A stretch of 32,000 nucleotides of DNA from an uncultured Actinomycetes bacterium (GTDB lineage Bacteria > Actinomycetota > Actinomycetes > S36-B12 > CAIYMF01), in contig CAWJMG010000003.1 in assembly GCA_963843975.1 (NCBI GenBank), forward strand, positions 2,070,001-2,102,000, given 5' to 3'. Under the pieces are notes generated by a model. The model saw only the letters and a program-made list of their open reading frames with translations, did not search any database and was not told the origin of the DNA. Within the stretch, counting starts at the first letter, position 1. The number at the start of each line of letters is the position of its first letter. Shown here in pieces: positions 604 to 21,134 of the stretch. Made by a program: the position numbers and the translations under genes.

Positions 604-910
604 TCAGGTCGGCAGGCGGCCGTCGCCGTACGTCGTGACGATCTCGCTCACGACGATCCGGTAGCCGTCGTACCAGCGCGCGACCTGGCCCTTGGCCTCG
701 AGGTGCTGCGGGAAGCGGGAGAAGCTCGGCCAGCGCCTCGCGGTCGGCGAAGTAGTACGTCGCGTTGACCGTCCGCCCGTCCGCGGACTGCCAGGACTCG
801 ACCCGGTCGAAGCCGGGAAGGCTCCGCGCGAAGGCCTCGATGGCTCCGTCGAGGCGGTGGAACTCGTCGTCGTACTCACCGGGCATGAAGATGAACTGGA
901 CGCAGATCAT
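604..910 (-). pseudogene. ABM (antibiotic biosynthesis monooxygenase-like) domain protein, interrupted by a +1 frameshift at 721..727.
   Basis: Frame 1 (from ATG 910) reads MICVQFIFMPGEYDDEFHRLDGAIEAFARSLPGFDRVESWQSADGRTVNATYYFADREALAEL and then turns into Arg/Pro junk. Frame 2 continues SRFPQHLEAKGQVARWYDGYRIVVSEIVTTYGDGRLPT* and ends at 604. The span is 307 nt (102 codons + 1). Deleting one T from gene-strand GAGCTTC restores a 101-aa ABM-like protein. The ATG overlaps the upstream B3/4 stop (ATGA). Confidence 0.7.
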
Positions 911-1683
911 GCGCTCTCCCGAGGCCCGGTCGACAGGTCAGGTCCGGCACCGAGGAGGCGCCAGGCCACCTCGACGCCCGGTGCGTCGGCGCGCAGGTGG
1001 GTCACGAGAGCCTCACCTGCTGCGTGCAGGTGTCCTTCCTCGACCGGCTCGAGCCCGTCGAGGATGAACAGGATGTCCTCAGTGGTCCCGTCAAGACGCG
1101 TGCGCACGCACTGACGCCAGTTCCAGCGACGGCAGGTCACACCGAGGTCGTCGCGCCAGACGACCTCGCCCTGGTCGGCGGTGACGACGACCTGCTCGCC
1201 GTCGGCGACCGTGTCGAACGCCTCGTCCCCGACCGCCCGCACGAGGCGCGGAAGTCCGACGTAGCGCGCGAGGTTCTCGCCGCCGATCGGGATGAGGTGC
1301 TCGACCGAGACCGCGTTGTAGAGGTCGGTGAGGCGGTCGATGCGCGGAAGCCCGGCGTCGAGCCGTCGCACCAGGGCCTCGACGCTGCTGCGGGCCTGGC
1401 GCGGCTTCACGCCGAAGCCGAGGAAGGCCTCGCGCCACGATGCGATCTCGGGCAGCGACTCCGGGGCAGCGCCGTCGAGCCGGCTGCGAACCGACTCCTC
1501 GGCCTGCCGCAGCGCGGCCTCGCTCCGCTCGTCGCTGGGTCCGCCACGCACCCCGCGCGCCACGATCAGCAGTGCGCGGTAGTCGGGACGCAGGGCGAGC
1601 ACGGCGTCGTCGATGCTCGCCGCTGCGAGGACTGCGTTCGGCGAGGTGCTTCCCGCGCTCGTCACGTCCGGTCCGGCCGGCAT
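907..1683 (-). CDS. B3/4 domain-containing protein (PheT B3/B4-like, COG3382 type).
   Basis: This is the C-terminal 258 aa of the 423-aa track ORF: MPAGPDVTSAG...ASWREAFLGFGVKPRQARSSVEALVRRLDAGLPRIDRLTDLYNAVSVEHLIPIGGENL...TCRRWNWRQCVRTRL. ATG at 1683..1681 overlaps the restored DinB stop (TGATG). High GC3. Confidence 0.8.
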   Translation of the reverse strand: MPAGPDVTSAGSTSPNAVLAAASIDDAVLALRPDYRALLIVARGVRGGPSDERSEAALRQAEESVRSRLDGAAPESLPEIASWREAFLGFGVKPRQARSSVEALVRRLDAGLPRIDRLTDLYNAVSVEHLIPIGGENLARYVGLPRLVRAVGDEAFDTVADGEQVVVTADQGEVVWRDDLGVTCRRWNWRQCVRTRLDGTTEDILFILDGLEPVEEGHLHAAGEALVTHLRADAPGVEVAWRLLGAGPDLSTGPRESA

Positions 1684-2178
1684 CAGGTGCGGGGGGCGAG
1701 GATCTGCTCGCGCAGGATGTCGCCGTGGCCCGCATGCCGGGCGAAGCTCGCGGATCATGTGCGCGTACACCCAGCGCAGGGTGAGCGGGCTGCGCCGGTT
1801 GTGCAGCACGAGGTCGTCGAGGCCGTACGACCCCGCGATGCCGTTCGACTCCGCGCACGCCTCGCGGTACGCCGCGAGCAGCGACCCGACCGTGTCGCCG
1901 TCGTCGAGCCGCCAGCTGTCGTCCGCCTCCTCGGGGATGCCGAGCTCGGCCCGGGTGCGCCCCGCGAGCCCGACCTGGAACCACACCTGCTCGACGAACG
2001 TGCAGTGCTTCACCAGCGACGCGAGCGTCGTCAGCGACGGCACGAGGCTGCGCCGCGCCTGCTCCTCGGTGAGGCCCTCGAGCAGCTCGGCGATCTCGAG
2101 GCGCTGGTCGTCGACGAACGCCTGCAGCGTCGTGCGCTCGTCAGCGCGCAGCACGTCGTCGGTGCCGAGCTCTGCCAT
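1683..2178 (-). pseudogene. DinB / DUF664 family (mycothiol-transferase-like) protein with a +1 frameshift at 1743..1749. As sequenced it reads through into the B3/4 gene as a 423-aa chimera.
   Basis: The N-terminal 145 aa (…LASLVKHCTFVEQVWF…LTLRWVYAHMIREL) match the DinB/DUF664 pattern. The family C-terminus ARHAGHGDILREQILAPRT* is present but in the +1 frame. The span is 496 nt (165 codons + 1). Removing one T of GAGCTTC restores a 164-aa protein. Confidence 0.75.
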
Positions 2179-2200
2179 GGCCTGCCTTCCGTCGTACGTG

Positions 2201-2842
2201 TCAGCGCGACGCGGTGGCGACGCGCAGGCCGAGCAGGATCAGCACCGAGCCGCTGACGTAGTCGATGCGCCGGCGGATCTTGGTGCGGCTGAACCAGGTG
2301 CTGGCGCGACCGACGGCGAGGGCGAGGCCGAGGTAGAGCACCGTCTCGACGGTGACCTGGATCGTCGCGAGCACCATCGTCGTGGCGAGCACCGGGCCGT
2401 CGTGCGGCACGAACTGAGGGTAGAAGGCGAACATGAAGGCCGCCGCCTTGGGGTTGGCGAGCTGGACGAGCAGCCCTTCGAAGAAAGCGCCGCGGCTGGA
2501 GTGAGGCTTCGGCGGCTCGGGCAGCGCCTCGACGCCGCCCTGGTCGCGCAGCCTCCAGCCGGCACGGAGCGACTTCACGCCGAGGTACACGAGGAACGCC
2601 GCGCCCACGACCTTGAGCACGAGGAACGCCGTCTCCGACGCCGCGACGAGCGCGGCCAGACCAGCACCGGCGGCCAGCGCCCAGAGCCACAGGCCCAGCT
2701 CGAGGCCGAGGACGGTCGGCACCGCGGCGCGGAACCCGTGCAGCCCGGCCCGCTGGAAGATCAGCGCCATCGCCGGGCCGGGGCTCGCGGCGATCACGAG
2801 CACCGCGACGAGGAACGCCGGGAGCACGGAGAGGATGTCCAC
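2201..2842 (-). CDS. LysE/RhtB family amino-acid exporter.
   Basis: VDILSVLPAFLVAVLVIAASPGPAMALIFQRAGLHGFRAAV…ANPKAAAFMFAFYPQFV…: typical LysE family motifs and about 6 TM segments. GTG start at 2842 chosen at the family N-terminus. The track ORF extends upstream as an Arg/Pro-rich shadow. Confidence 0.85.
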   Translation of the reverse strand: MDILSVLPAFLVAVLVIAASPGPAMALIFQRAGLHGFRAAVPTVLGLELGLWLWALAAGAGLAALVAASETAFLVLKVVGAAFLVYLGVKSLRAGWRLRDQGGVEALPEPPKPHSSRGAFFEGLLVQLANPKAAAFMFAFYPQFVPHDGPVLATTMVLATIQVTVETVLYLGLALAVGRASTWFSRTKIRRRIDYVSGSVLILLGLRVATASR

Positions 2843-2945
2843 GGCGCGATTCTGGCAGCGATGGTCCCGTGAGGTCCTGCGCGTTCTCGTCGGACATGCA
2901 GGAGCCGGGGCCGCTGGGAGGCGGCCCCGGCTCCTTCGTGCCTCG

Positions 2946-3494
2946 TCAGCCGAGCGCAGGTCGCCCGAAGGTAGGAGCCTCCGACCGGGACGCGGACAGC
3001 GTGACGAGCGAGCCGGGACCGGCGACGGGAGGAGAGTCCACGCCGGCACGGCCCAGGTGGTGGGCCTCAGGGTCGAGCAGGGACGTGCGCACCGTGCTCG
3101 GGGCAGCCACGCCCATCGCCTCGGCCGAGGTCGCCGCCCCCGCGGCCCGCGCTGCAGCAGCCCGTGCCCGCAGCTCGCCGCTGCGGAAGTGGGCCTCCCT
3201 CGGCAAGGTGGCCGGGACGCCGGTGACCGGCACCGTCTGCGGCCGGGGGACGACCGAGCGGGCGCCGTACGCGTGCGTCTCCGGGTCGGGGCCCGTGGTG
3301 CGGTGGATGGCCGCGGAGGTCCCGGCGGCTCCCGCCGGCGCGGACCCGCTGTCGGCACGTGAGCCGATGAGCGCGCCGGCGGCGAGCCCGATCAGGAGGG
3401 CGATGACGGCGACGACGGCGAACGCCGAGATGTCGAGGTCTGACCGACGCGGTGTGAAGGACGGCGCAGGGGCGGTGAGGGGCATCGCGTTCAT
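2946..3494 (-). CDS. Hypothetical membrane-anchored protein (short N-terminus, one TM, Ala/Pro-rich extracytoplasmic part).
   Basis: ATG at 3494 with GGAG 7 nt upstream. Very high GC3 in this frame. TM segment ISAFAVVAVIALLIGLAAGALIG. I recognise no family. Confidence 0.55.
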   Translation of the reverse strand: MNAMPLTAPAPSFTPRRSDLDISAFAVVAVIALLIGLAAGALIGSRADSGSAPAGAAGTSAAIHRTTGPDPETHAYGARSVVPRPQTVPVTGVPATLPREAHFRSGELRARAAAARAAGAATSAEAMGVAAPSTVRTSLLDPEAHHLGRAGVDSPPVAGPGSLVTLSASRSEAPTFGRPALG

Positions 3495-3651
3495 GTCGGG
3501 CTCCGGTGGCTCGGGGATCCGGGGAGGGCGGATCCGTCATGAAGGACGCTAGATTTCGGGCCCTGCGGCCCGCGTCAGGGGAATCCCTCGACCTTGGCCC
3601 GGAGGCCCCGAAGCACCGTTGAGGCCGACGTCCAGGTGTCACAGTGACGAC

Positions 3652-6315
3652 GTGATAGTCGGACGCGATCTGGAGAAGCAGGCGGTCGAGGGCCTGGTCA
3701 CCTCGGCATGCGACGGTCAGGCTTCTGTGCTGCTGCTCGTCGGATTGCCTGGCATCGGCAAGACCTCGCTCCTCGACCACGCCGAAGAGGCAGCCGCCGC
3801 CAGAGGAATGTCCGTGTGGCGCCTGACCGCCGTCGAGGCCGAATCGGGCATCAGCGGCTCGGGCCTCAGCCTGCTGGGGCCGGTGGCATCGGACGACAGG
3901 CTCATGAGCCCGTGGGGCCTGCTCGATGTCCTCGCCACGGCTGCCGCGGACAATCCGCTGCTGCTCGCGGTCGACGACGCACACTGGCTCGACGAGGTGT
4001 CGCTCACAGCGCTGGGCTTCGCCTGCCGACGGCTCCAGTACGACGCGGTCGCTGTCGTCATGACTGCTCGGCCGGAGATCGACCTGCGCCACGAACTCTC
4101 CGGCGTCGGACGGATCGAGGTCGGTCCGCTGACGGACGACGAAGCCAGCGCCCTCCTCGTGCACACGTCGCCGGGGATGCCCGTCGACGTCGCCCGCTCG
4201 ATCGCCGCGTCCCTCGGTTGCGTCCCGCTGGCGCTGGTCGAGGCCCCCGCCCTGCTCCCGCTCGACATGCTCGAGGGCAGGACGGCGGTCACCTCGCCCC
4301 TCCCGGTAGGGCGTTCGATCACCGCCAGGTACGCGCGGGGCATCGACTCCCTTCCCGAGGCCACTCGCCGCGCTCTGGTGATCGCGTCGGCCAGTGACTC
4401 CGGCAGCGCGGCGACCATCGCCGAGGCGCTCGACCTCGCCGGGCTGTCCCCGGGGGACCTCGTGCCGGCGCACAAGGAGGGACTCGTCCTCCTCGACGGC
4501 GGATTCCGGTTCCGGCATCCGCTCGTGAGGTCCGCAGTCCACGCGGCGGCCCGCGACAGCGAGCGCCGGGACGCCCATCTCGTCCTGGCGGCGGTGGCCA
4601 GCCGCCAGGGCGACGAGGACGCCCGGCTGCGGCATGCGTCGGAAGCCGCGCTCGTGCCTGACGAGGCTCTCGCGGCCGGCCTCGAGGGGCGCGCTCCGGA
4701 GGTCGCGCGACGATGCGGCGGAGCCGCAGCCGCAGCCGCGCTCGAGCGCGCAGCCGAGCTCTCACCTGTCGTCGCTGACCGATGGCGCAGGTTGGTGGGT
4801 TCGCTCGAGCTCGCTGGCGCTGCGCCCGCGAGCGCGCGGCATGCCCACGAGGTGCTCGAGCAGTGCGCGGACCCCGAACTGCGCGCTCGTGCAGCCCTCG
4901 TCCTCGCGGACGAGCACCTCCCGGCCGCGGCGGCAGGGCTCCTCCTCGAGGATGCGTTGCGGGACCTGCCCCGGGGGGAGATCGCGGACGGGCTGATGGT
5001 TCTGCGGGCGCGCCTGGCGATGCACCAGCTGGACCTGCCTGCGTTGGATCGGATCGCCGAGCAGCTCCTGTCCTGGGAGGCGGACCAGCCCCTGTCCTGG
5101 AGGTGCGCGGGGACCGTCGGTGAGATCGCCACCTTCCGCGGTCGGCACCGCGAGGCTCGGGAGTGGATGCGGCGGGCGGTGCGTGACTCCGCCACCGATG
5201 ACGCCGACTCGCTCCCGCTCTACTCCTTGTTCGACTGGGTGGTCGTCGCCAACCACGTAGGCGAGGAATGCATGAACGACCCGCCGACCGCGGTGCGCCG
5301 GGCCGCCGCGTCACGCCGTTTCCGGGCGACCCGCGACCCGATCTGGATGGGGCTCGACGAGATGCTCGCCAGCGAGGCGGCACGCCGTGCGGGCAACCCG
5401 ACCCTCGCCGCGGTGACCGCCCGGTCGGCCCTCGGCTACGGCCCGGACACGGGAGGGCTCCGCACAGCGCTGCTGTCGCGTCTCGCGCAGGTCCTCGGCT
5501 CCGTCGGCGACGAGGCCGGTGCGCTCGCTGTGGCCGACGAGCTCGACAGCTACGCCGAGCTGCTCGACATGCCGTGGGAGGGCCTGTGGTCGCACTACGC
5601 GCGAGGGGTGCTGCACTTGGCGACTGGCCGTGCGGACGCCGCAGTTGTGGCGCTCGCGCGCTTCGACGGGATCGGTTATCTGGGTCGCGGGGTCCGGGAC
5701 GCGGTCGCCACGTCTCTCGTCATTCTCGTCGAGGCCTTCGCCGCCTCCGGTCGGGATTCCGACGCGCTTCGCGTCGCCGGCGACCTCGAGCGGTGGTTGG
5801 ACGGCTCGGCAGACCCTCTGGCCGCGGCCTTCGTCCACAGGGCCCACGCACTGGCCGGCACCGATGATCCGGATGTGCGCTTCACGACCTCGGCCCTGCA
5901 CCACCGCGCCACGGACGACCCGTTCGAGCTCGCACGAACCCTTCTCCTGCATGGGGAGTGGCTGCGTCGCAACCGGCGGCCCGCCGACTCGCGCATTCCG
6001 TTGCGGGAGTCGGCTGTGATCTTCGAGCGCCTGGGGGCGGCCACGTGGGCGGCACGGGCGCACAGCGAGCTGGCCGCCACCGGAGAGACGCGCGCACCCC
6101 TCGGGGGGTCCACTGCGGCGGCCGACCTGACGCCTCAGGAGCTCCGCATCGCCCTTGCCGTCGCCGAGGGCCTCAGCAACAACGAGATCGCGGCCGCGGT
6201 GTTCCTCAGCGTGAAGACCATCGAGACCCATCTGACGCGGCTCTACCGGAAGCTGGGCGTGCGCTCGCGGGCGGGCGTGGCCAAGGCGCTCGCCGAAGCC
6301 GGCATCGCCGCGTGA
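3652..6315 (+). CDS. Large ATP-binding LuxR-family regulator (LAL/MalT-like: N-terminal P-loop NTPase, helical/TPR-like middle, C-terminal LuxR HTH).
   Basis: Walker A GLPGIGKTSLL. C-terminal LTPQELRIALAVAEGLSNNEIAAAVFLSVKTIETHLTRLYRKLGV is a canonical LuxR/FixJ HTH. GTG 3652 (VIVGRDLEKQ…) fits the family N-terminus. The track start at 3619 is a TTG and is an alternative. Confidence 0.85.
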   Translation: MIVGRDLEKQAVEGLVTSACDGQASVLLLVGLPGIGKTSLLDHAEEAAAARGMSVWRLTAVEAESGISGSGLSLLGPVASDDRLMSPWGLLDVLATAAADNPLLLAVDDAHWLDEVSLTALGFACRRLQYDAVAVVMTARPEIDLRHELSGVGRIEVGPLTDDEASALLVHTSPGMPVDVARSIAASLGCVPLALVEAPALLPLDMLEGRTAVTSPLPVGRSITARYARGIDSLPEATRRALVIASASDSGSAATIAEALDLAGLSPGDLVPAHKEGLVLLDGGFRFRHPLVRSAVHAAARDSERRDAHLVLAAVASRQGDEDARLRHASEAALVPDEALAAGLEGRAPEVARRCGGAAAAAALERAAELSPVVADRWRRLVGSLELAGAAPASARHAHEVLEQCADPELRARAALVLADEHLPAAAAGLLLEDALRDLPRGEIADGLMVLRARLAMHQLDLPALDRIAEQLLSWEADQPLSWRCAGTVGEIATFRGRHREAREWMRRAVRDSATDDADSLPLYSLFDWVVVANHVGEECMNDPPTAVRRAAASRRFRATRDPIWMGLDEMLASEAARRAGNPTLAAVTARSALGYGPDTGGLRTALLSRLAQVLGSVGDEAGALAVADELDSYAELLDMPWEGLWSHYARGVLHLATGRADAAVVALARFDGIGYLGRGVRDAVATSLVILVEAFAASGRDSDALRVAGDLERWLDGSADPLAAAFVHRAHALAGTDDPDVRFTTSALHHRATDDPFELARTLLLHGEWLRRNRRPADSRIPLRESAVIFERLGAATWAARAHSELAATGETRAPLGGSTAAADLTPQELRIALAVAEGLSNNEIAAAVFLSVKTIETHLTRLYRKLGVRSRAGVAKALAEAGIAA

Positions 6316-6341
6316 GGCCTGCGCGCAGGACGCGCAGCGGG

Positions 6342-6363
6342 CCCGGCTCCTCGTGAGGAGCCG
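6342..6363. terminator. GC-rich hairpin between the convergent LuxR regulator and aminotransferase genes (candidate bidirectional terminator).
   Basis: CCGGCTCCTC gt GAGGAGCCGG gives 10-bp complementary arms, extendable with one mismatch to GGGC…ACCC. No clear U-tract. Confidence 0.4.
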
Positions 6364-6387
6364 GACCCGAGCAGTGCAGGTGATGCG

Positions 6388-7812: not shown

Positions 7813-7866
7813 CCGAGCCTCCGTTGGCTGCGCAGTGCGGGCCCCGGAATCGTAGACCGTCCCGGT

Positions 7867-9420: not shown

Positions 9421-9499
9421 GCGGATCCTCCTCGGCCCCGAGTACGGGAGTGACGGAGCCGGGTGGACTCTAGGGCGGTCGTCCCCGTCCGGAGAACGG

Positions 9500-9519
9500 A
9501 TCCTGCGATTTCGCAGGAT
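9500..9519. promoter_or_regulatory. Palindrome ATCCTGCGA-tt-TCGCAGGAT between the EamA stop and the permease start (operator and/or EamA terminator).
   Basis: Perfect 9-bp arms with a 2-nt spacer. Flanking GAAC…GTTC extends it imperfectly. It lies in the most AT-rich part of the 127-bp spacer. Confidence 0.3.
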
Positions 9520-9547
9520 GTTCTTACCCGGACGTCACATGCCCGAC

Positions 9548-10548: not shown

Positions 10549-11019
10549 GTGAAGGCCGCACGCGCGATCACGGCAGGAGCCCTGGTGCTCGTGGCAGCGA
10601 CCGGGTGCTCCAGCGGCGGCACGCCCACGCCCACGTCCTCGGCGCCGGCCACGTCCGCGGCGCCCAGCTCGAGCACCCCGTCGAGCACGCCCACGAGCGC
10701 CTCGCCCAGCGCGAGCCCGTCCGAGGAGCCCACGGCCGGGCCGTCGAGCACGCTGCCCCCGAAGCTCGCGGCGTACCAGCTGTGCGGCACGGTCCTCGGC
10801 CTCGCGGCCGGCTTCATCGGGCAGATCGCGCCGGACCAGCTCGACGAGGGGAAGAAGATCGCCGAGCAGGCGCGCGCCGACTACGTCGACGACGGCTCCG
10901 GCCTGGCGCAGAAGGCCGACGCAGTGCTCGACGCCGTCGAGTTCGCCGACCAGACCAAGGTCGTCACCTCGTCCAAGGCGCTGGCCGACGCGTGCAAGCA
11001 GGTCGACCCCGGCACGTAG
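10549..11019 (+). CDS. Putative lipoprotein with a Ser/Thr/Pro-rich linker.
   Basis: GTG start with AGGAGGA 6 nt upstream. Signal peptide plus lipobox-like LVAATGC. Low-complexity STP tract followed by a roughly 90-aa globular part. I recognise no family. Confidence 0.7.
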   Translation: MKAARAITAGALVLVAATGCSSGGTPTPTSSAPATSAAPSSSTPSSTPTSASPSASPSEEPTAGPSSTLPPKLAAYQLCGTVLGLAAGFIGQIAPDQLDEGKKIAEQARADYVDDGSGLAQKADAVLDAVEFADQTKVVTSSKALADACKQVDPGT

Positions 11020-11038
11020 CCCGCCGTACGGTGACGGC

Positions 11039-11713: not shown

Positions 11714-11717
11714 GGCG

Positions 11718-12086: not shown

Positions 12087-12111
12087 GGTGTTCCTCTCCG
12101 GTGTCGTGGGC

Positions 12112-12846: not shown

Positions 12847-12900
12847 CCGACCACGGTAACCCGCGCGGCCGCCGGGCTCTCCCCGGGCCAGGATGGGCGC

Positions 12901-13326
12901 GTGCCCGGAGACCTGCAGGTCCGCGGCTCGGTCGTCATCCCCGAGGCCGAGCTCTCCTGGCGTTTCTCCAGGTCGTCCGGCCCGGGCGGCCAGGGCGTGA
13001 ACACCACCGACTCACGGGTCGAGCTGCTCTGGGACGTCGCAGCCACCACCGCGCTCGGCCAGGTGCTGAAGGATCGCGCGCTCGATCGCCTGGCCGATCG
13101 GCTCGTGGACGGGGTGCTCAGCGTCACGGCGTCCGAGCAGCGCAGCCAGTACCAGAACCGGCTCGCCGCCGAGCGGCGGCTCGTGGACACCGTGGCCGCC
13201 GCGATCGCGCCGCCGCCGAGGCCGCGCCGCGCCACCAAGCCCACCCGAGGCTCGGTCGACCGCCGCATCGCAGCCAAGAAGCGCCGCGGCGAGACCAAGC
13301 GCCTCCGCCGCCCCGACGCCGACTAG
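12901..13326 (+). CDS. arfB: Alternative ribosome-rescue factor ArfB (peptidyl-tRNA hydrolase, GGQ class).
   Basis: VPGDLQVRGSVVIPEAELSWRFSRSSGPGGQGVNTTDSRVEL…ASEQRSQYQNR… followed by a basic C-terminal tail KKRRGETKRLRR. 141 aa from GTG 12901. The upstream part of the 396-aa track ORF is antisense to SURF1. Confidence 0.85.
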   Translation: MPGDLQVRGSVVIPEAELSWRFSRSSGPGGQGVNTTDSRVELLWDVAATTALGQVLKDRALDRLADRLVDGVLSVTASEQRSQYQNRLAAERRLVDTVAAAIAPPPRPRRATKPTRGSVDRRIAAKKRRGETKRLRRPDAD

Positions 13327-13343
13327 CCGCGTCCCTGGCGCAC

Positions 13344-13373
13344 GTGCCAGAAAGCACAAGGGTCTTCTGGCAC
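13344..13373. terminator. Hairpin between convergent arfB and the EcsC-family gene.
   Basis: GTGCCAGAA (13344..13352) pairs with TTCTGGCAC (13365..13373), leaving a 12-nt loop. Confidence 0.4.
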
Positions 13374-13397
13374 TCGGGTGAGCGACGTGAGGCGAGG

Positions 13398-14063
13398 TCA
13401 GGAGGTCGCGAAGGTGCGGCCTGCGAGGCCGCCGACGTACTGGGTCAGTGCGGCGTCGATGCCGCCACCGACGAGCCCGCCGACCAGCGGGATCGACCGG
13501 ACGGCGGTGAACGCGAGCCGCTTCCCGCCGTACTTGGCGACGAGGAAGATCCCCGCGCGACGGTTGATCTCGCGCACCACCGGCACCGGCAGACGCGCGA
13601 TCGCGTCGTGCGTGCGACCGTCCACGATCTCGACACCGAGCTCGGTGAGCACCTTGGCGGCATCGGCTCCCGCGACCGTCAGCAGGATCGATGCCTGCGT
13701 GTGCTGCGAGTCGAGGTAGTGCCCGTGCAGGTGGGCGATCGCGCCGACCATCCGCGAGTTGATGACCAGGTTGCCGGCGACGTTGGCCGGGAACGTGAGC
13801 GGCAGGGCCAGGAAGCCGCCGAGCCCGGTCAGGAATCCGGTCCCGCCGGTGGCGATCACGGACTCGCGGATCATCAGCGCGATGGCTGCGTCGCGGTCGC
13901 CGGTGTCCGCGAGGCGGGCGTCGCCGTACGCCGCGGACCCCACGAGCGGCCCGGCGCCGTGGTCGACCACGTCGAGCACGACCTGCTGCAGCTTCTGCTC
14001 GAGCCGCAGAAGGAGCGACTCCGGCTCCCGCTCAGCGGCCGCGGGCTCGACGACCTCGACCAT
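13398..14063 (-). CDS. EcsC-family protein.
   Basis: …IRESVIATGGTGFLTGLGGFLALPLTFPANVAGNLVINSRMVGAIAHLHG…RSIPLVGGLVGGGIDA… ATG 14063 with GAAGGGGGA upstream. The track start at 14132 adds an Arg-rich leader that I consider unlikely. Confidence 0.75.
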   Translation of the reverse strand: MVEVVEPAAAEREPESLLLRLEQKLQQVVLDVVDHGAGPLVGSAAYGDARLADTGDRDAAIALMIRESVIATGGTGFLTGLGGFLALPLTFPANVAGNLVINSRMVGAIAHLHGHYLDSQHTQASILLTVAGADAAKVLTELGVEIVDGRTHDAIARLPVPVVREINRRAGIFLVAKYGGKRLAFTAVRSIPLVGGLVGGGIDAALTQYVGGLAGRTFATS

Positions 14064-14171
14064 GTCCGTCCCCCTTCGTCGTACGCGATACCTCGAGGAT
14101 CGCACCGAAGGCGCGGCCTGTCCGAGCTTCACCGCGGTGCGCGGTCAGCGGAGCAGACGAGGGTCTTCGGG

Positions 14172-14498
14172 CTAGGGGGCCGGCGAGGAGGGGGCCGACG
14201 GCGTCGGCTCCTCCGGGCTGGCGCCCAGATCCACGGCTGCAGCGGCAGCGGCCTCACGCTCCGCCTTCTTGCGGGTGTAGCGCGGGTTCTCGGTGGTCGA
14301 CTCGTCGAAGTCGACCCGCTTGATCTGCTTGTTGAGGCTCTTCCAGATCACGAACACCGCCACGGCCATGAACAGCACCGCGAGCAGCCCGAGGAAGCCC
14401 GGCGAGACGCGGTCGGGGTCGATCGCCGGGGCCGTGGACGACGGCGACGGCGACGGCGACGGGGAGACGGACGCGGCCACCAGCCACAGGGTGCTCAC
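14172..14498 (-). CDS. Small single-pass membrane protein (Ser-Pro repeat, one TM, charged tail), translationally coupled to mca.
   Basis: GTG 14498..14496 overlaps the mca TGA (GTGA). High GC3. TM segment [18 protein letters not shown]. The start is uncertain; shorter internal starts are possible. Confidence 0.5.
14440..14462. repeat. Short hexanucleotide tandem repeat (GACGGC, 3 perfect copies plus a partial one) encoding the (Ser-Pro)n tract of the small membrane protein.
   Basis: Read directly from the sequence: gacggc gacggc gacggc gacgg. Confidence 0.5.
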
Positions 14499-15448
14499 AG
14501 GGACCTCGATGCATCGGAGAGCTCGGCGTCGAGCGCAGAACCGGGACGGATCCCGGCGAAAAGGTCGGTCTCGATGCCGTCGCCGACGGGCACGAGCGAC
14601 CGGGCGAGCTGGAAGTCCTCGGTGGGCCAGGCCGCGCGCTGCGCGTCCATCGGCACGGCGAACCAGCGGCCGTCCGGATCGATCTGCGTCGCGTGAGCCT
14701 TGAGCGCCTCGTCCCGCGCCTCGAACCACTCGGAGCACTCGACCTGCGTCGTGAGGCGCGCGGCATCCTCGGGCTTGTCCTCCCAGGTGGCCAGCCAGTC
14801 GCCGAACGGCGACTCGACGCCCGCGGCGAGGCACATCTCGTGCAGCGCGATGAGGCGGGCCTTGTGGAAGGTCAGGTGGTAGTAGAGCTTGGCCGGCTGC
14901 CACGGCTCGCCGGTGCCGGGGAACTCGGCCGGGTCGCCCGCGGCCTCGAACGCGCGCATCGAGACCTCGTGGGTCTTGATGTGGTCGGGGTGCGGATAGC
15001 CGCCGTTCTCGTCGTACGTCGTCATCACGTGCGGGCGGAACTCGCGGACGAGCCGGACGAGGGGCTCGGTGGCCTCGTCGAGCGGCACCAGCGCGAAGCA
15101 GCCCTGGGGCAGCGGCGGGACGACGCCCTGCTCGTCGGCCTCGGGCAGGCCGGAGTCGTGGAAGCCGAGCCACGTGTGCTGGATGCCCAGGATCTCGGCC
15201 GCGCGCGCCATCTCGGTGCGCCGGTAGGCCGCGAGGTCCTCGAGCACGGCCGGGTCGTGCGCGAGACCGGGGTTGAGGACGTCGCCGCGCTCACCGCCGG
15301 TGCACGTGACGACCAGCACCTCGACGCCCTCGGCGACGTACCGCGCAGCCGAGGCCGCGCCCTTGCTCGACTCGTCGTCGGGGTGGGCGTGCACCGCCAT
15401 GAGGCGCAGCGGCTCGCCGGGCGCCGGAAGGTGGGGTGCAGCGGTCAC
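14495..15448 (-). CDS. mca: Mycothiol S-conjugate amidase (LmbE/PIG-L family).
   Basis: …[18 protein letters not shown]…[15 protein letters not shown]…[24 protein letters not shown]… GTG 15448 with AGGAG 5 nt upstream. The context next to DUF4307 and greA matches mca rather than mshB. Confidence 0.88.
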
Positions 15449-15562
15449 GGTCGCTCCTGGTCGTGGCGGTCGGGCAGAGGTGAGGGACACTCGTACCTGG
15501 ACGGTCGGCGCCCCGGCACCGACACAGTCTCCCAGACCCGTACGACCACGCGAGGAGGCCCG

Positions 15563-16069
15563 GTGACCGAGCCCGCCACCGACCTGCGCCGCGAGGCCCG
15601 CACCGGCCTGATGCTCACCCCGGCGATGGCCGCGCGGTACGGCGTCCGCCGCACGAACCGGGTGGCCGTCGGAGTTCTCGCCGTGCTCGTCATCGGCTTC
15701 GTGGCCGGCGTCCTCGGCCTCGGCTACCGCCTCGCGACGCCCGACACCCAGGCCAAGCTGCTCGCCTTCTCGGTCGAGTCCCCGACGCGGATCAACGTCA
15801 CGTTCGAGGTCCGCCGCGACTCGCTCGCCGAGACGTACTGCGTCCTCCGCGCCCGCGCCGTCGACCACACCGACGTCGGGTTCGCGCAGTTCCGCATCAC
15901 CCCCGGCCGCGAGTACGTCCAGGTGACCTACCCGCTCGCGACGTACGCCGAGGCCACGAGCGCGGAGGTGCTGGGCTGCGCCGCCGGGGAGCCCCCGCGC
16001 GTCGACCCGCCCGGGTTCCTCCCCGGGACGACGAACCCCGAGCAGGTCGCGGTCGTCGACGGCTCGTAG
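15563..16069 (+). CDS. DUF4307 domain membrane protein.
   Basis: GTG 15563 with GAGGAGG upstream. N-terminal [23 protein letters not shown] followed by …[10 protein letters not shown]…YCVLRARA…. Occupies the conserved position between mca and greA. Confidence 0.75.
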
Positions 16070-16154
16070 CCGCATCAGCGGACGGGCGCCGTACGCTGTT
16101 CTCCCTGACGTCCGGCCGCCTGCGGCCACCCTCGAGCGAAGTGAGACAGATCCC

Positions 16155-16643
16155 GTGAGCGAGACCACCGAGACCTGGCTGACCCAGGAGGCGTTCGAGC
16201 GTCTCCAGGAGGAGCTCGCCGACCGGTCGGGTCCGCGCCGCGCTCAGATCGTGAAGCGCATCGAGGCCGCGCGCGAGGAGGGCGACCTCAAGGAGAACGG
16301 CGGGTACCACGCCGCCAAGGAGGAGCAGGGCAAGAACGAGGCCCGCGTGAAGGTGCTCACCCACCTCCTGGAGAACGCCCAGATCGGCGCACCGCCGGCC
16401 ACGGACGGCGTCGTCGCGCAGGGCCAGGTCGTCACCGTGCGCCTCGTCGAGTTCGACGAGGAGGAGACGTTCCTGCTCGGCTCGCGCGAGGAGGCCGCGA
16501 CCACCACGCTCTCGGTCTACTCCCCCACCTCGCCGCTCGGCGGCGCGGTTCTCGGCGCGAAGGTCGGCGACACCGTGAGCTACCGCACACCCGCCGGCAA
16601 GACGCTGAACGTCGAGGTCCTGCGCGCCGAGTCGCGCGCCTGA
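16155..16643 (+). CDS. greA: Transcription elongation factor GreA.
   Basis: [58 protein letters not shown]… is the canonical GreA coiled-coil and C-terminal domain. Confidence 0.95.
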
Positions 16644-16654
16644 GAACGCCCGAA

Positions 16655-16685
16655 GGCCCGGCCCCGCTGCGACGGATGCCGGGCC
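16655..16685. terminator. Hairpin between convergent greA and the ABC-2 permease.
   Basis: GGCCCGGC (16655..16662) pairs with GCCGGGCC (16678..16685), leaving a 15-nt loop. Confidence 0.4.
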
Positions 16686-16696
16686 ATCGTCGTGCG

Positions 16697-17566
16697 TCAG
16701 GAGTTGGCGCGGTACTTGCGGACGGCGAGGGTGCTGAACAGTGCGATGAGCGCGGTGCACGAGATGAGCGTGTAGGCCACCGGGTGCTGCATCGGCCAGG
16801 GCGAGGACGCCAGGTTGTCGGCGAGGCCGGTCGGGTTGCCGAACAGCTCGCGGCAGGCGAGCACCAGCGACGACACCGGGTTCCACTCGGCGAAGGTGCG
16901 CAGGAGTGCGGGCATGCCCGCGAGCGGCACGAACGCGTTCGACAGGAACGTCAGCGGGAAGAGCCAGATCAGGCCGGCGGTGCTGGCCGTCTGCGGATTC
17001 GGCATGTGCAGCCCGACCCACGACCCGATCCACGCCACGGTGTAGGCGAAGAGCAGCAGCAGGAGGTACGCGAGCACCGCGTTGAGGAAGCCGTTGTCGA
17101 TGCGCCACCCGACGATGTAGCCGGTGATCGAGAGCACCACGAGCACACCGATCTGCTGCAGCGCGTCCGCCGCCGTGCGGCCGAACAGGACGGCCGAGGC
17201 CGCCATCGGCAGCGAGCGGAACCGGTCGACGATGCCCTTGTGCAGGTCGTCGGCGAGACCCACGGTCGAGGCGGCCGCGGCGAACGCGACGGTCTGGCCG
17301 AAGATGCCGGGGATGAGGTACTGCCGGTACGCCTCGGCGCCTGCGCCCGGGTCTGCCCCGGGGACGGGGATCGCGCCGCCGAAGACGTACGCGAACATCA
17401 GCACGAAGATCACGGGCTGCACGAGCGAGAAGAAGATGCTCTCGGGGACGCGCAGCGACTGGATGAGGTTGCGCTTGGCGACGACGACGCCGTCGTGCAG
17501 GAACCAGCCGATGCCGGGGCGCTTCAGCTCGCGCCCGACCGGCGAGGGTGCGGTGGTGGCAGCCAT
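16697..17566 (-). CDS. ABC-2 type transporter permease (DrrB-like).
   Basis: 289 aa with 6 TM segments. …VVAKRNLIQSLRVPESIFFSLVQPVIFVLMFAYVFGG… The ATG lies 1 nt after the ATPase stop. Confidence 0.9.
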   Translation of the reverse strand: MAATTAPSPVGRELKRPGIGWFLHDGVVVAKRNLIQSLRVPESIFFSLVQPVIFVLMFAYVFGGAIPVPGADPGAGAEAYRQYLIPGIFGQTVAFAAAASTVGLADDLHKGIVDRFRSLPMAASAVLFGRTAADALQQIGVLVVLSITGYIVGWRIDNGFLNAVLAYLLLLLFAYTVAWIGSWVGLHMPNPQTASTAGLIWLFPLTFLSNAFVPLAGMPALLRTFAEWNPVSSLVLACRELFGNPTGLADNLASSPWPMQHPVAYTLISCTALIALFSTLAVRKYRANS

Positions 17567-17567
17567 G

Positions 17568-18581
17568 TCAGGCCTCCTTCTTCGCGCGGCCGCGCTTGCG
17601 TCCGGTGGTGGCAGGGGTGGTCTCCTCCTCGGCCGCGTGGCCGGTGAGGGTGAGGAACACGTCGTCGAGCGTGGGACGTCGCAGCGCGAGGTCGTCGACC
17701 TTCACCCCGGCCGAGTCGAGCGCGCGGACCGCCTCGACCAGGACCGTCGAGCCGCCGGAGACCGGGGCGCGCAGGGTGCGGGTGTCGGCGTCGACGACGG
17801 CGTCGCCGTCGCTGACCGACCGCACCGCGGCCACTGCCGCGTCGAGGTCGGTGCCGGGCGACACCACGATCTCGAGGCGGTCGCCGCCGACCTCGGTCTT
17901 GAGCTCGTCGCTCGTGCCCTGCGCGATGATGCGGCCCTTGTCGATGACGACGATGCGCTCGGCGAGCTGGTCGGCCTCCTCGAGGTACTGCGTGGTGAGC
18001 AGGACGGTGGTGCCGTCGGCGACGAGGTCGGTGATGACCTCCCACATCTGCAGGCGCGAGCGCGGGTCGAGGCCCGTGGTCGGCTCGTCGAGGAACAGGA
18101 TCTTCGGGTTGCCCATGAGGCTGGCCGACAGGTCGAGGCGGCGACGCATGCCGCCGCTGTAGGTCTTGGCCGGTCGGTCGGCGGCATCGGTGAGCGAGAA
18201 GCGCTCGAGCAGCTCGTCCGCCCGGTTCTTCACGTACGCCTTGGGCAGGTGGTAGAGCCGCCCGATCATGTCGAGGTTCTCGCGGCCGGTGAGGTACTCG
18301 TCGACCGCGGCGTACTGCCCCGTGAGGCCGATCTGGCGGCGTACCTCGTCGGGCTTCTTGGCGACGTCGATGCCGGCGACGGTGGCGTGGCCGCCCGTCG
18401 GCTTGAGGAGCGTCGCGAGGATGCGCACGGTCGTGGTCTTGCCGGCGCCGTTCGGGCCGAGCAGCCCGTAGACCGTGCCGTACGGGACCGTGAGGTCGAT
18501 GCCGTCGACGGCCTTGACGTCGCCGAAGTGCTTCACGAGGCCTTCGGCGTGGATCGCCGCCTCGCCGGGTGGATGTGCCAT
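17568..18581 (-). CDS. ABC transporter ATP-binding protein (DrrA/daunorubicin-resistance family).
   Basis: Walker A GPNGAGKTT, signature YSGGMRRR, Walker B ILFLDEPTTGLD, and a DrrA-type C-terminal extension. Confidence 0.9.
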   Translation of the reverse strand: MAHPPGEAAIHAEGLVKHFGDVKAVDGIDLTVPYGTVYGLLGPNGAGKTTTVRILATLLKPTGGHATVAGIDVAKKPDEVRRQIGLTGQYAAVDEYLTGRENLDMIGRLYHLPKAYVKNRADELLERFSLTDAADRPAKTYSGGMRRRLDLSASLMGNPKILFLDEPTTGLDPRSRLQMWEVITDLVADGTTVLLTTQYLEEADQLAERIVVIDKGRIIAQGTSDELKTEVGGDRLEIVVSPGTDLDAAVAAVRSVSDGDAVVDADTRTLRAPVSGGSTVLVEAVRALDSAGVKVDDLALRRPTLDDVFLTLTGHAAEEETTPATTGRKRGRAKKEA

Positions 18582-18705
18582 GGATGGAGCCTTCCCCTCG
18601 ATGGTGATGCGCGCATACGGGTTTCGCCCCTCGCGGAACCCGTGCGGTGAACTGGATACCGGTTGACGCCGGGTGAGGGTCCAGGGTGCGCGGCACCCCG
18701 GACGC

Positions 18706-19092
18706 TCAGTCGGTGAGCAGCTTCTCCGCCTCGTCGACGGTGATCCGGCCGGCAGCCACGTCCGCGAGGACGGCGTCGCGGTCGACGGACTTCGCCGCCG
18801 CGGCGGGGTCCTCGAGCCCGAGCCTGGCGAGCAGGTCGGCGTACCTCTGGCGGGTGGTGGGGTACGAGACGCCCAGGTGCTTCTCGAGCTCGCGCATGTT
18901 GCCGCGGCTCACGAGGAAGACGCGCAGCATCTCGAGCTCGTCGTCCGACAGCGCGTCGTACGGGCTCATCCGGAACGCGCCGCTGATGCCGGTGCCGCAC
19001 TCGGGGCACCCGCAGCCCGTGATGACGAGCTCGTGCGCGCACACCGGGCACGAGCGCGGGGCACGACGGACGGGATCGGAAGCCGGGGTCAT
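18706..19092 (-). CDS. DUF2089 protein (zinc ribbon plus HTH) with a SHOCT-like C-terminal tail.
   Basis: CPVCAHELVITGCGCPECGTGISGAF…LSDDELEMLRVFLVSRGNMRELEKHLGVSYPTTRQRYADLLARLG is the DUF2089 signature. The tail is …VLADVAAGRITVDEAEKLL. The ATG overlaps the upstream stop (ATGA). Confidence 0.75.
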   Translation of the reverse strand: MTPASDPVRRAPRSCPVCAHELVITGCGCPECGTGISGAFRMSPYDALSDDELEMLRVFLVSRGNMRELEKHLGVSYPTTRQRYADLLARLGLEDPAAAAKSVDRDAVLADVAAGRITVDEAEKLLTD

Positions 19093-19865
19093 GACGCCAC
19101 CGCCACCGAGGCCGAGCCGAGCCGGACGGCGATCGTGAACGGGTGCGTACCCGCGCCGACGACGTACGACTGCCGGGCGGAGGACGCCTCGCGCTTGGGC
19201 ATGCCCGCGATCTTCACCTCGCCGAGGTCGGTCGTCGCGGTCACGGTGACGTCGGACCCGGGCAGCAGCCGGACGTCGAGGCTGCCGAGCTCGCAGGACA
19301 GGTCGCTCGACTCGCGCACGGTGGCCACGACGTCGAGCGAGCCCATCGCGAGGCTGCCGTGCAGGGCTCCGACGTGGTCGCGGACCTGGACGGACGACGC
19401 GCTGCCGCCGAGCGTCAGTGCGGCCCGCATGCCGGAGATCTCGACCGCGCACGCCGTGGCCTCGACGGTCAGGGCCAGCGCGGGATTGATCCGGACCATC
19501 ACCTTCTGGCCGCGGCCGCCGGTCCAGACGGTGGGCACCCAGCCGAGGAAGCGCGGGGGCGGGGTGGTGCGGTAGCCATCCTCGCTCGGGGCGTCGAGCA
19601 CGAGGACCGAGCCCTCGCGACGGACGGCGTGCGGGCCGTCGGCGACCGCGGTCGCAACGGTGGGGTCGGCGACGATCGTGAGCTTCACGCCGCCGGCGTG
19701 GATGGCCACGGCCGTGGGCGGGGCCTCGGAGCTGATGCCGTCCCGGCGGTCGAGGGTGGGGGCGGCGGGGTCCTCGTCGAGCCGGCGGGCTGCCTCGGCA
19801 GGGTCGATCTCGCCGGAGGCCACCCGCGTGAGCAGGTCGCGCAGTGCAGTGGTGTCATCGGTCAT
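19089..19865 (-). CDS. SHOCT-like N-terminal domain fused to a DUF4097/Toastrack-like beta-repeat domain.
   Basis: N-terminus LRDLLTRVASGEIDPAEAARRLDE. C-terminal periodic strands …ISGMRAALTLGGSASSVQVRD.VGALHGSLAMGSLDVVATVRESSDLSCELGSLDVRLLPGSDVTVTATTDLGEVKI are typical of DUF4097-type repeats. No TM segment seen. Confidence 0.65.
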   Translation of the reverse strand: MTDDTTALRDLLTRVASGEIDPAEAARRLDEDPAAPTLDRRDGISSEAPPTAVAIHAGGVKLTIVADPTVATAVADGPHAVRREGSVLVLDAPSEDGYRTTPPPRFLGWVPTVWTGGRGQKVMVRINPALALTVEATACAVEISGMRAALTLGGSASSVQVRDHVGALHGSLAMGSLDVVATVRESSDLSCELGSLDVRLLPGSDVTVTATTDLGEVKIAGMPKREASSARQSYVVGAGTHPFTIAVRLGSASVAVAS

Positions 19866-19891
19866 GGGATGACTGTAAAACGGTTCTTTCT

Positions 19892-19917
19892 ACTTTGGCA
19901 ACCCCGGTTGCCAAAGT
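19892..19917. promoter_or_regulatory. 12-bp-arm palindrome (ACTTTGGCAACC cc GGTTGCCAAAGT) overlapping a candidate leaderless promoter of the Toastrack/DUF2089 operon. Also positioned as the ilvA terminator.
   Basis: Arms read directly from the sequence. On the minus strand, TTGCCA (19901..19896), an 18-nt spacer and TACAGT (19877..19872) sit 6 nt before ATG 19865. This is the lowest-GC stretch locally. Confidence 0.35.
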
Positions 19918-19921
19918 TCTC

Positions 19922-21134
19922 TCATCCGGCCCGGACGTGGAAGCCCTCCCGGGCGAGGTGGGCGAGGACGTCCTCCCGGTGGGCGGGGCCGCGGGTCTCC
20001 ACCTGCACCTCGATCTCCACCTCGTGCAGGTGCAGCTGGGGGTCGGCCCGTCCGTGCTCCACCTCGACCACGTTCGCGTCGGCGGCGGCGAGGGCTGCGA
20101 GCAGGGAGGCCAGCGAGCCGGGCCGGTCGGGCATGCGCACGGTGAGGGTGCTGTAACGGCCGGCAGCGGCGAGGCCGTGGCGGATCACGCGCAGCAGCAG
20201 CAGCGGGTCGACGTTGCCGCCGGACACGACCACCACCACCGGGGGCTCGAACGCCTGCGGGTCGTCGAGCACGGCCGCCAGCCCGGCCGCACCTGCGGGC
20301 TCCACGACGAGCTTGCCCCGCTCGAGCGTGAGGACGAGGGCCCGAGCGATGGTCTCGTCGTCGACGACCACGATGTCGTCGACGAGGTGGTCGACCAGCG
20401 CGAACGGCACGTCGCCCGGCCGCCCGACGGCGATGCCGTCGGCCATGGTCGACATCGAGGCGAGCGCGACCGGGTGGTGCGCCTTGAGCGAGTCGGGGTA
20501 CGCCGCTGCTCCCGCGGCCTGGACGCCGACGATGCGTACGTCGGGGCGCACAGCCTTCACGGCCACGGCGATACCTGCGAGCAGCCCGCCGCCGCCGGTG
20601 CACACGACGATCGTCTTCACGTCCGGTCGCTGCTCGAGGATCTCGAGGCCCACCGTGCCCTGCCCGGCGACGATGTCCTTGTGGTCGAACGGATGGATGA
20701 GGATTGCACCCGTCGCGTCGGCGAACTCCTGCGCCGCGACGAGGCACTCGTCGATGGCCGAGCCGATGAACCGGACCTCGGCGCCGTACCCGCGCGTGGC
20801 CGCCACCTTCGGCAGGGGCGCGCCGACGGGCATGAACACCGTCGCGCTGATGCCGAGCATCGACGCCGCGAGGGCCACCCCCTGCGCGTGGTTGCCGGCG
20901 CTCGCGGCCACGACGCCGCGGGCCCGCTCCTCCTCCGACAGCCGCACCATGCGCGTGTAGGCGCCGCGGATCTTGAAGCTGCCGGCCCGCTGGAGGTTCT
21001 CGCACTTGAGCTTCGACCGGTCCCCCGACCTTGTCGGCGAGCCACCGGGCGGGCCGCAGCGGGGTCTCGCGGGCCACCCCCTTGAGGGCGATCCGCGCTG
21101 CTTCGACGTCCTGCACCGTCACCGTCTCGATCAC
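19922..21134 (-). pseudogene. ilvA: Threonine ammonia-lyase (biosynthetic/short IlvA with a C-terminal ACT-like domain), interrupted by a +1 frameshift at 21008..21014.
   Basis: N-terminal frame from GTG 21134: MIETVTVQDVEAARIALKGVARETPLRPARWLADKVGGPV. The shifted frame continues (E)LKCENLQRAGSFKIRGAYTRMVRLSEEERARGVVAASAGNHAQGVA…, which contains the PLP-lysine motif SFKIRGA. The span is 1213 nt (404 codons + 1). Deleting one A of gene-strand GAAGCTC restores a 403-aa protein. Confidence 0.85.

Follow-up and report, generated by a model that had tools for sequence, protein, structure and literature searches.

Three of the approximately 33 genes in the window (the whole stretch of DNA that was analysed, 32,000 nt) are each interrupted by one frame break, and all three breaks fall on the same heptamer, GAGCTTC (GAAGCTC on the opposite strand), which is one base longer than the palindrome GAGCTC. 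We asked whether these breaks are present in the DNA of the organism or were introduced when its genome was assembled. As proposed in an earlier, sequence-only reading of the window, each gene carries one extra base: deletion of a single T/A restored the reading frames of an ABM/HmoA-like gene, a mycothiol S-transferase (MST)/DinB_2 gene, and ilvA. No further frame breaks were found among the other ~30 genes, which showed either near-full-length Pfam domain matches or a continuous GC3 frame.

The heptamer was present in exactly six copies when both strands were considered, at 721 (−), 1743 (−), 10761 (−), 14124 (+), 19680 (+), and 21008 (+), the same six that the sequence-only reading had listed. 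In shuffled sequences, the expectation for the window was 4.2 ± 1.9 copies on either strand. Intact GAGCTC, of which "dozens" of sites had been noted by eye, was counted 33 times versus 21.6 ± 4.3 expected from shuffles, and was thus over-represented. Not all copies of the heptamer are frame breaks. The copy at 19680 reads in frame as G AAG CTC, and that at 10761 lies within an uninterrupted plus-strand frame. The copy at 14124..14130 (+) is intergenic, located between genes at 13425..14075 (−) and 14259..14498 (−), and may be natural or, like the three breaks, the result of an insertion. Overall, the extra base affected three of 36 motif sites while GAGCTC was kept at 33, a proportion that counts against an error in the consensus sequence. 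No flanking context distinguishing the three affected sites from the rest of the 36 was found.

The ABM/HmoA-like gene (604..910, minus strand) is currently split over two frames, and removal of one base gives a 101-aa product; its heptamer (721..727, minus strand) has one T more than GAGCTC. The repaired protein was 87–92% identical to its four closest homologues (101–110 aa), and the homologue alignment across the junction reads ...ALAELSRFPQH..., with AELSRFPQH spanning the break. The name ABM (antibiotic biosynthesis monooxygenase) given to this gene earlier agrees with the names that the sources give to the homologues (heme-degrading monooxygenase HmoA or ABM family), but the Pfam match does not carry it, as the product of 604..910 missed the gathering score of PF03992 (E = 0.064, 13.9 bits versus a cut-off of 23.1). 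The MST/DinB_2 gene (1683..2178, minus strand) encodes 164 aa when repaired, and its heptamer (1743..1749, minus strand) likewise exceeds GAGCTC by one base. The repaired protein matched positions 1–147 of the 149 in profile PF04978 (E = 2e-44) and also matched PF12867. The DUF664 of the earlier label DinB/DUF664 is now called MST in Pfam. Without repair, the frame runs into the downstream B3_4-domain gene (907..1683, minus strand), forming a fused 423-aa ORF (907..2178).

The third gene, ilvA (threonine ammonia-lyase, PALP + ACT; 19922..21134, minus strand), encodes 403 aa when repaired and is now divided into a 342-aa ORF and a fragment from the N-terminus. Its heptamer (21008..21014) reads GAGCTTC on the plus strand and GAAGCTC on the coding minus strand. 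The repaired protein was 99% identical to a 403-aa homologue, with the junction reading ...GGPVELKCENLQ..., and the alignment over the junction followed GGPV-E/D-L-KCENLQ with an invariant L. Relative to the coding strand, ilvA therefore has GAA GCT C where the other two genes have GAG CTT C. Protein alignments placed every extra base inside the CTTC/GAAG portion of the heptamer; at two of the three breaks, removal of the neighbouring C or G yields an identical protein. Both the fused 423-aa product (P0143) and the shortened 342-aa ilvA product (P0138) are present in public protein collections.

Relatives were checked on contigs with SPAdes-style (short-read-style) names (L027 and L028) and on JGI contigs. 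All three sites carried an in-frame 6-mer in relatives: GCC GAGCTC TCC at the ABM site (L027 and L028), CGC GAGCTC GCC at the MST site (L027), and GTC/GTG GAG CTC AAG at the ilvA site (L037, L039, and L035), with one relative (L001) reading GTC GAG CTG AAG at the last. The ilvA junction was one base shorter than the window in every relative compared. The sequence-only reading had reckoned with close relatives that carry the 7-mer in frame, in which case its junctions would be wrong; this turned out not to be so. For the ABM and MST genes, the DNA of relatives also decides which base is extra, in favour of GAGCTC as the form without it.

The interrupted genes otherwise looked intact. GC3 was 0.95–1.0 in both halves of all three, the repaired ABM and ilvA proteins were 87–99% identical to their closest intact homologues, and no secondary decay (additional lesions or lost codon bias) was found in any of the three. 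The codons CTT and GAA were each counted 16 times among 9547 codons, versus 606 for CTC and 540 for GAG. The inserted base thus creates codons that are almost absent from genome usage, which supports the insertion being an error. On the other hand, in-frame GAG-CTC pairs numbered 29 versus ~34 expected, so that no restriction-type avoidance of GAGCTC was seen, and this counts against the error reading.

The recurrence of one sequence at all three breaks could also be expected if the heptamer were a signal for programmed +1 recoding, in which ribosomes shift frame, or transcription slips, at GAGCTTC and full-length proteins result. However, the orientation of the heptamer on the coding strand differs between the genes and a ribosomal signal cannot work both ways, the orthologues in all relatives examined are single-frame and lack the extra base, and an in-frame MST allele is found in the organism's own read set (see below). 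The orientation difference and the in-frame orthologues effectively refute recoding, to which we assign a vanishingly small probability.

We compared the window with Logan k-mer contigs built from run ERR12037365. The six contigs cover 15,330 nt of the window but not the ilvA junction; they may derive from the assembly's own reads and do not represent an orthogonal technology. The contigs and the window are from the same organism: over 15.3 kb, they differed at three positions in total (1744, 28577, and 1255), and no substitutions away from motif sites were found. At 1744, contig L003 reads GAGCTC versus GAGCTTC in the window and encodes an intact 164-aa protein (P0144) that falls into one cluster of at least 90% identity with the repaired MST protein. 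At the ABM site, L003 reads GAGCTTC, as does the window. The MST insertion is thus absent from L003 and the ABM insertion is present in it. As the latter is common to both sequences, the read evidence there does not conflict, which counts against the error reading.

The second difference also involves the motif. At the intact GAGCTC site at 28574..28579 (+), contig L026 reads GAGTTC, a C→T change at the fourth base (28577). Five relatives, including a Longivirga aurantiaca isolate, read GTC GAC GAG CTC GGC at this site, and the Logan C→T is the deviant version because the window and all five agree on GAGCTC. Alternate alleles were therefore seen at the level of k-mer contigs at two motif sites, 1744 and 28577. 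The third difference, at 1255, is GAAG versus GAG and lies outside the GAGCTC motif; here, the B3_4-domain gene is intact in the window, where the Pfam B3_4 domain spans 1255, whereas L003 lacks one A, has the gene broken at that point, and carries a gene call of only 181 aa. GAGCTC-derived sites account for ~0.65% of the covered bases, and two of the three differences fell within them (p ~1e-4). Differences dominated by indels fit long-read data, and indel-only noise together with a single 2.76-Mb (2,758,296-bp) contig only suggest that long reads were used.

Taken at face value, the off-motif difference at 1255 shows the same GAAG versus GAG pattern as the breaks, as would be expected if all of these were generic long-read indels (one versus two A/T between G/C at low coverage) that are independent of modification and share a motif by coincidence. 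Such a coincidence would be aided by the fact that no Glu-Leu codon pair is commoner than GAG-CTC, by the high frequency of GAG (825) and CTC (763) in the window, and by the occurrence of GAGCTC above the shuffle level. Yet only ~72 (~4.5%) of the 1588 GAG/CTC trinucleotides in the window lie within GAGCTC-derived sites, and if GAG→GAAG errors were random over these trinucleotides, the probability of three out of three falling in the motif would be ~1e-4. Sharing of any 7-mer by three random positions occurred in 0.02–0.4% of trials, the range reflecting the localisation tolerance allowed. The earlier contention that three chance indels in one 6-mer are improbable was thereby borne out, at ~1e-4 to 4e-3 with the post hoc choice of motif allowed for. 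In addition, the C→T in the reads also falls in a GAGCTC site, and a substitution is not a homopolymer-length error. We consider generic indels a very improbable explanation.

Real mutations were the second possibility raised by the sequence-only reading. Under this explanation, GAGCTC would be an in vivo hot spot for +1 insertions, arising for example from mutagenic repair of SacI-type cuts or nicks or from slippage at a methylated palindrome, and the ABM-like gene, MST, and ilvA would have become pseudogenes recently, perhaps in only part of the population. That the deposited contig and the independent k-mer assembly of ERR12037365 share the ABM insertion agrees with this, motif specificity would suit a site-specific enzyme, and alternate alleles within one sample could in principle represent population polymorphism. 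Moreover, 5-methylcytosine is a genuine hot spot for C→T deamination. Real mutation would nevertheless require the motif to mutate much faster than the surrounding sequence, given alternate alleles at two motif sites in 15.3 kb that are free of off-motif substitutions, and it leaves the lack of secondary decay in the broken genes to be accounted for. By reasoning only, GAGCTTC is not derivable by simple rejoining of GAGCT^C or GAG^CTC ends. The off-motif 1-base deletion at 1255 shows that technical indel noise exists in the read set, and the loss of ilvA, MST, and the ABM-like gene within 21 kb by one rare type of event is implausible for a free-living organism. For these reasons, we regard real mutation as unlikely. 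Slightly less likely still is the reading in which GAGCTC is such a hot spot in this uncultured Sporichthyaceae-like actinobacterium, for instance through a SacI-type restriction-modification system that nicks or cuts its own under-methylated sites with mutagenic repair to follow, and in which the alternate alleles are real polymorphism; if true, a defence system would disable host genes at its own recognition sequence.

Most likely, then, the three frameshifts do not occur in the DNA of the organism and arose as errors at modified GAGCTC sites in the consensus of a long-read assembly, most probably a Nanopore one. This corresponds to the systematic basecalling or polishing error, one of two causes that the sequence-only reading had left unranked, and it is favoured by the MST allele in the reads, the C→T within another GAGCTC site in 15.3 kb otherwise free of substitutions, the relatives, the lack of decay, and precedent in the literature. 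Strand-specific errors induced by modification are known from R10.4.1 Nanopore data, where they outlast polishing with Medaka or Racon and bear a C2T/G2A signature (Hammerhead study, PMC11610603); related work includes PMC11610573 and PMC11389150. The deviations described here resemble those of the Hammerhead study in being tied to a short methylation-type motif, in the alternate calls within one read set, in the C→T at a presumably methylated C (28577), and in outlasting consensus polishing. They differ in that each error fixed in the window adds one base, a T following C-T or an A on the opposite strand. The assembly errors reported in that study are substitutions and not +1 insertions, which counts against the error reading.

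A second precedent comes from Propionibacterium freudenreichii, also a high-GC actinobacterium, whose methylated GRGCYC class includes GAGCTC. In PMC11649196, P. freudenreichii strains with 5mC at GRGCYC had 114–126 differences with Native Duplex R10.4.1 reads, whose error distribution resembled that of regular Native reads. The strain without it had a perfect assembly from Duplex reads and two differences when regular Native reads were used, compared with about 100 or more residual differences in native R10.4.1 assemblies of strains with the motif. Indels inflated the CDS counts. The passages considered neither link these errors to the motif nor mention insertions at it; here, all four anomalous sites are GAGCTC. 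Compared with the frameshift pseudogenes of decaying genomes, the breaks are similar in that single-base shifts truncate or fuse recognisable genes; unlike those pseudogenes, they show no secondary decay, are identical motif-bound events, and have an in-frame MST allele in the sample.

For the consensus errors, we propose that GAGCTC is methylated in the organism; the likeliest form is GAG(m5C)TC, produced by a cytosine methyltransferase of the SacI/Sgr13350I type. Methylation of this kind, by an M.Sgr13350I-like enzyme, was found by RIMS-seq2 in Patulibacter (PMC11954522, citing REBASE), which is also a soil actinobacterium; for the present organism, the link to such an enzyme would follow from the error pattern alone. 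This type of Type II m5C methyltransferase acts on the same hexamer, its methylated fourth base (GCT context) is the position of the C→T seen in the reads, and this base directly precedes the duplicated T of the heptamer. These two positions, together with the Patulibacter precedent, suggest that the fourth base of GAGCTC would be the methylated one. The modified C beside T would distort the signal in reads of the modified strand, and, judging from the two kinds of deviation, the "mC-T" step could be read either as T-T (C→T) or as C-T-T (+1 T). The error may arise on either strand because the site is palindromic, giving GAGCTTC or GAAGCTC in plus coordinates, and both orientations were observed. 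The consensus would be right at most sites (33/36), with the insertion winning at a minority and entering the assembly.

The specificity of the presumed enzyme was assessed from the distribution of the anomalies. Each of the four distinct anomalous sites is a GAGCTC site, and the 65 remaining GRGCYC sites (GGGCCC/GAGCCC/GGGCTC) were all unaffected, which, within the limits of such small numbers, favours SacI-type over BanII-type (GRGCYC) specificity ((36/101)^4 ~0.016). No DNA methyltransferase gene was found within the 32-kb window, and this counts against the error reading.

Once a +1 frameshift has entered the assembly, gene callers would output truncated or fused proteins, as was observed for the ilvA and MST genes. 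It follows from the GAGCTC-linked frame breaks that pseudogene calls in this genome may be inflated in a motif-dependent way. The relevance of the three frame breaks is thus one of practical data quality, and they hold little biological interest.

We surveyed all of the approximately 33 genes of the window for frame breaks, using a GC3-based gene map together with Pfam scans. Three breaks were detected, each on a GAGCTTC heptamer (GAAGCTC on the other strand), that is, on the palindrome GAGCTC with one extra T or A. The sequence-only reading had listed six such heptamers over both strands (at 721, 1743, 10761, 14124, 19680 and 21008), and both their count and positions matched ours exactly; its further claim that three minus-strand genes are each broken by one extra base at a heptamer was fully confirmed. 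Removing one base at 721–727 restored a 101-aa ABM-like protein (gene at 604–910), 87–92% identical to its four closest homologues (101–110 aa) and with the same junction as in these homologues, ALAELSRFPQH. The corresponding repair at 1743–1749 yielded a 164-aa mycothiol S-transferase (MST)/DinB_2 protein to which essentially the whole of PF04978 was matched (E = 2e-44); the unrepaired frame continues into the downstream B3_4 gene, producing a 423-aa chimeric ORF (907–2178, minus strand). At 21008–21014, the repair yielded a 403-aa threonine ammonia-lyase (ilvA), 99% identical to an intact homologue, with a junction, GGPVELKCENLQ, that is near-invariant across the family. No further decay was seen in the broken genes.

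The event was identical each time: the single A or T of a half-site was doubled. Protein alignments placed the extra base of each heptamer within CTTC (or GAAG), and the insertion was found in both orientations, whether judged against the plus strand or against the coding strand. The codons made by the inserted bases, CTT and GAA, are rare here (16 each among 9547 codons, versus 606 CTC and 540 GAG). Codon bias across the 33 genes is extreme, TTT being used once versus 306 times for TTC. Codons ending in A or T are handy pointers to bases that were inserted or miscalled in this genome. As for the remaining heptamers, the one at 19680 reads in frame as G AAG CTC and that at 10761 lies inside an unbroken frame. 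The heptamer at 14124–14130 (plus strand) is intergenic, upstream of an EcsC-like gene, and spanned by none of the relative or Logan contigs retrieved; it may represent one more insertion of this type, a fourth and silent one.

Comparison with the DNA of relatives established GAGCTC as the reconstructed ancestral state. The ABM site reads GCC GAGCTC TCC in two ~90%-identical relative contigs with SPAdes-style names, one of which also covers the MST site, reading CGC GAGCTC GCC there. The ilvA site reads GTC GAG CTG AAG or GTC/GTG GAG CTC AAG in relatives. The window was one base longer than every relative examined at the three sites; the sequence-only reading had named an in-frame 7-mer in relatives as grounds for refutation, and it withstands this check, since what they carry is the shorter, in-frame site. 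In JGI metagenomes, no match was found for a 28-mer identical to the repaired ilvA junction, and a degenerate 21-mer matched more distant relatives only. Programmed recoding is effectively excluded, as the orthologues are in frame and the heptamer occurs in two orientations relative to the mRNA.

The concentration of the breaks on one motif was assessed in two ways. Three random window positions shared some 7-mer in 0.02–0.4% of simulated triples, depending on the break-localisation tolerance. Sites derived from GAGCTC hold only ~4.5% of the 1588 GAG/CTC trinucleotides, so that if GAG could become GAAG anywhere, finding three of three breaks in the motif has a probability of ~1e-4, which makes a coincidence of generic indel errors very unlikely. 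The window holds 33 GAGCTC sites, and no flanking context separating these intact sites from the three expanded ones was found. Fixed substitution-type motif errors gave no signal in the window (one in-frame GAA-CTC pair observed versus ~1 expected). Restriction avoidance of GAGCTC was not seen in the window, which is uninformative.

Read-derived calls for part of the window came from Logan, which assembles every public sequencing run on its own, using 31-mers that occur two or more times (PMC12424806). Six Logan contigs of the same organism (L002, L003, L004, L024, L025 and L026; run ERR12037365) covered 15,330 nt of the window and differed from it at only three positions. At 1744, Logan reads GAGCTC and the MST gene is intact, being called as the 164-aa protein P0144. 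At 28577, Logan has GAGTTC versus GAGCTC in the window, the fourth motif base being changed from C to T; the conserved version is that of the window (GTC GAC GAG CTC GGC in five relatives, one of them the cultured Longivirga aurantiaca). At 1255, one A of GGAAGTCC is absent from L003, so that the B3_4 gene is broken there and intact in the window. The last position (minus-strand context GTCGG[A]CTTCCG) was the sole non-motif discrepancy across the 15.3 kb; it resembles a generic AA-to-A deletion in reads. Because motif sites make up ~0.65% of the covered bases, the probability of two of the three differences falling on them is ~1e-4, and no substitutions away from motif sites were found in the 15 kb. 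The read set contains alternate calls precisely at GAGCTC sites, beside ordinary single-base indel noise, and such a pattern of discrepancies is what technical error looks like. The four distinct anomalous sites were all GAGCTC, and the other 65 GRGCYC sites were all unaffected, which mildly favours SacI-type over BanII-type specificity; GRGCYC is correspondingly disfavoured as the motif.

The ABM insertion is also present in a Logan contig, which fits poorly with an artefact. Logan contigs may share reads with the assembly and therefore do not represent an orthogonal technology. They break every 2–6 kb with no obvious repeat at the breaks (ends at 488, 6490, 18439, 20453, 21177, 23294, 24194, 25982, 27253, 29117 and 30461). 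The stretch 20453–21177, which holds the ilvA junction, is in no Logan contig carrying a complete gene. Neither repaired protein, ilvA or ABM, had an exact copy in the protein collection searched, and a search for a fragment near-identical to the ilvA N-terminus found none.

Three published precedents are relevant to the proposed mechanism. In Nanopore R10.4.1 data, modification-induced errors are strand-specific, consist mainly of C2T/G2A at the modified base and survive polishing with Medaka or Racon (PMC11610603). In the soil actinobacterium Patulibacter, m5C has been shown at GAGCTC in a GCT context, therefore at the fourth base, and the methyltransferase resembles M.Sgr13350I of Streptomyces (PMC11954522). 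P. freudenreichii strains with 5mC at GRGCYC, to which motif class GAGCTC belongs, had 114–126 differences with Native Duplex R10.4.1 reads; a similar error distribution is described for regular Native reads, and the strain lacking the motif had two differences with regular Native reads (PMC11649196). From the precedents in these three papers, we infer that this organism may methylate GAG(m5C)TC at the fourth base and that mC-T would in some reads of the modified strand be miscalled as T-T or C-T-T. The motif being a palindrome, the miscall could arise on either strand, and at a minority of sites (3/36 here) the inserted T or A would have won the consensus. The reads would presumably be long ones, from Nanopore or a different platform sensitive to base modification.

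Systematic error at a modified motif, the first of two causes put forward in the sequence-only reading, is the best supported given GAGCTC in relatives and the alternate motif-site calls in reads of the same organism. As biology, the three frameshifts are most likely no real feature. The other cause, a real site-specific mutational process at GAGCTC, appears unlikely: for the alternate calls to be real polymorphism, the motif would have to mutate far faster than the background. In addition, no route from rejoined SacI or blunt-cut ends to GAGCTTC could be constructed on paper, a point against simple cutting and repair as the origin. Such a process retains a small probability owing to the ABM insertion shared with Logan, the Logan gap over the ilvA junction, the possible sharing of reads, and the type of error: known modification errors are mostly substitutions (PMC11610603), whereas those here are +1 insertions, a type not described in the nanopore error literature cited.

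The G+C content of the window is 72%, and the closest matches of its genes come from Longivirga aurantiaca (Sporichthyaceae) and metagenomic genomes labelled 'Candidatus Nanopelagicales' by NCBI. Exact-sequence look-ups placed its proteins on one contig of 2,758,296 bp, present at NCBI and ENA. The mycothiol S-transferase (PF04978, 1683–2178, minus strand) and a PIG-L/MshB-type deacetylase (PF02585, 14564–15427, minus strand), both mycothiol-related, fit a mycothiol-using actinobacterium. An AAA+ (MoxR/Mg-chelatase-like) ATPase gene (26435–27928, plus strand) forms a conserved pair with a gene (28493–30454, plus strand) whose 653-aa product has a VWA domain at its C-terminus; a YbjQ/DUF2510 gene on the opposite strand sits between them, and the VWA gene is kept in Longivirga as well as in four related MAG contigs. 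A LuxR-family regulator of ~900 aa (3553–6312, plus strand) carries an AAA_16 ATPase domain at its N-terminus and a GerE HTH at its C-terminus; its GC3 signal is patchier and weaker than that of the adjoining genes. Just right of the window, L002 encodes a class-I SAM methyltransferase (Methyltransf_11/12/25; L002:1547–2431); it was ruled out as the GAGCTC enzyme, being of a small-molecule type and not a DNA methyltransferase.

The data-quality issue is concrete here: the chimeric 423-aa P0143 and the truncated 342-aa ilvA product P0138 are already stored in public protein collections. In 32 kb, three of the 36 motif sites failed; by rough extrapolation, and not by measurement, the 2.76-Mb genome would hold GAGCTC ~3,000 times, and frameshifts linked to the motif might number a few hundred. 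If the preferred explanation is true, pseudogene counts, completeness estimates, pathway calls and protein clustering would be biased in long-read-only catalogues in a methylome-dependent manner; isoleucine biosynthesis, for example, would look broken. An insertion-type error at GAG(m5C)TC would also broaden the range of errors described to date, which are mostly substitutions. For the organism itself, the three 'pseudogenes' would be artefacts, with ilvA, the mycothiol S-transferase and the ABM-like protein intact, and the error pattern would give, indirectly, the methylation motif of an uncultured lineage from assembled sequence alone.
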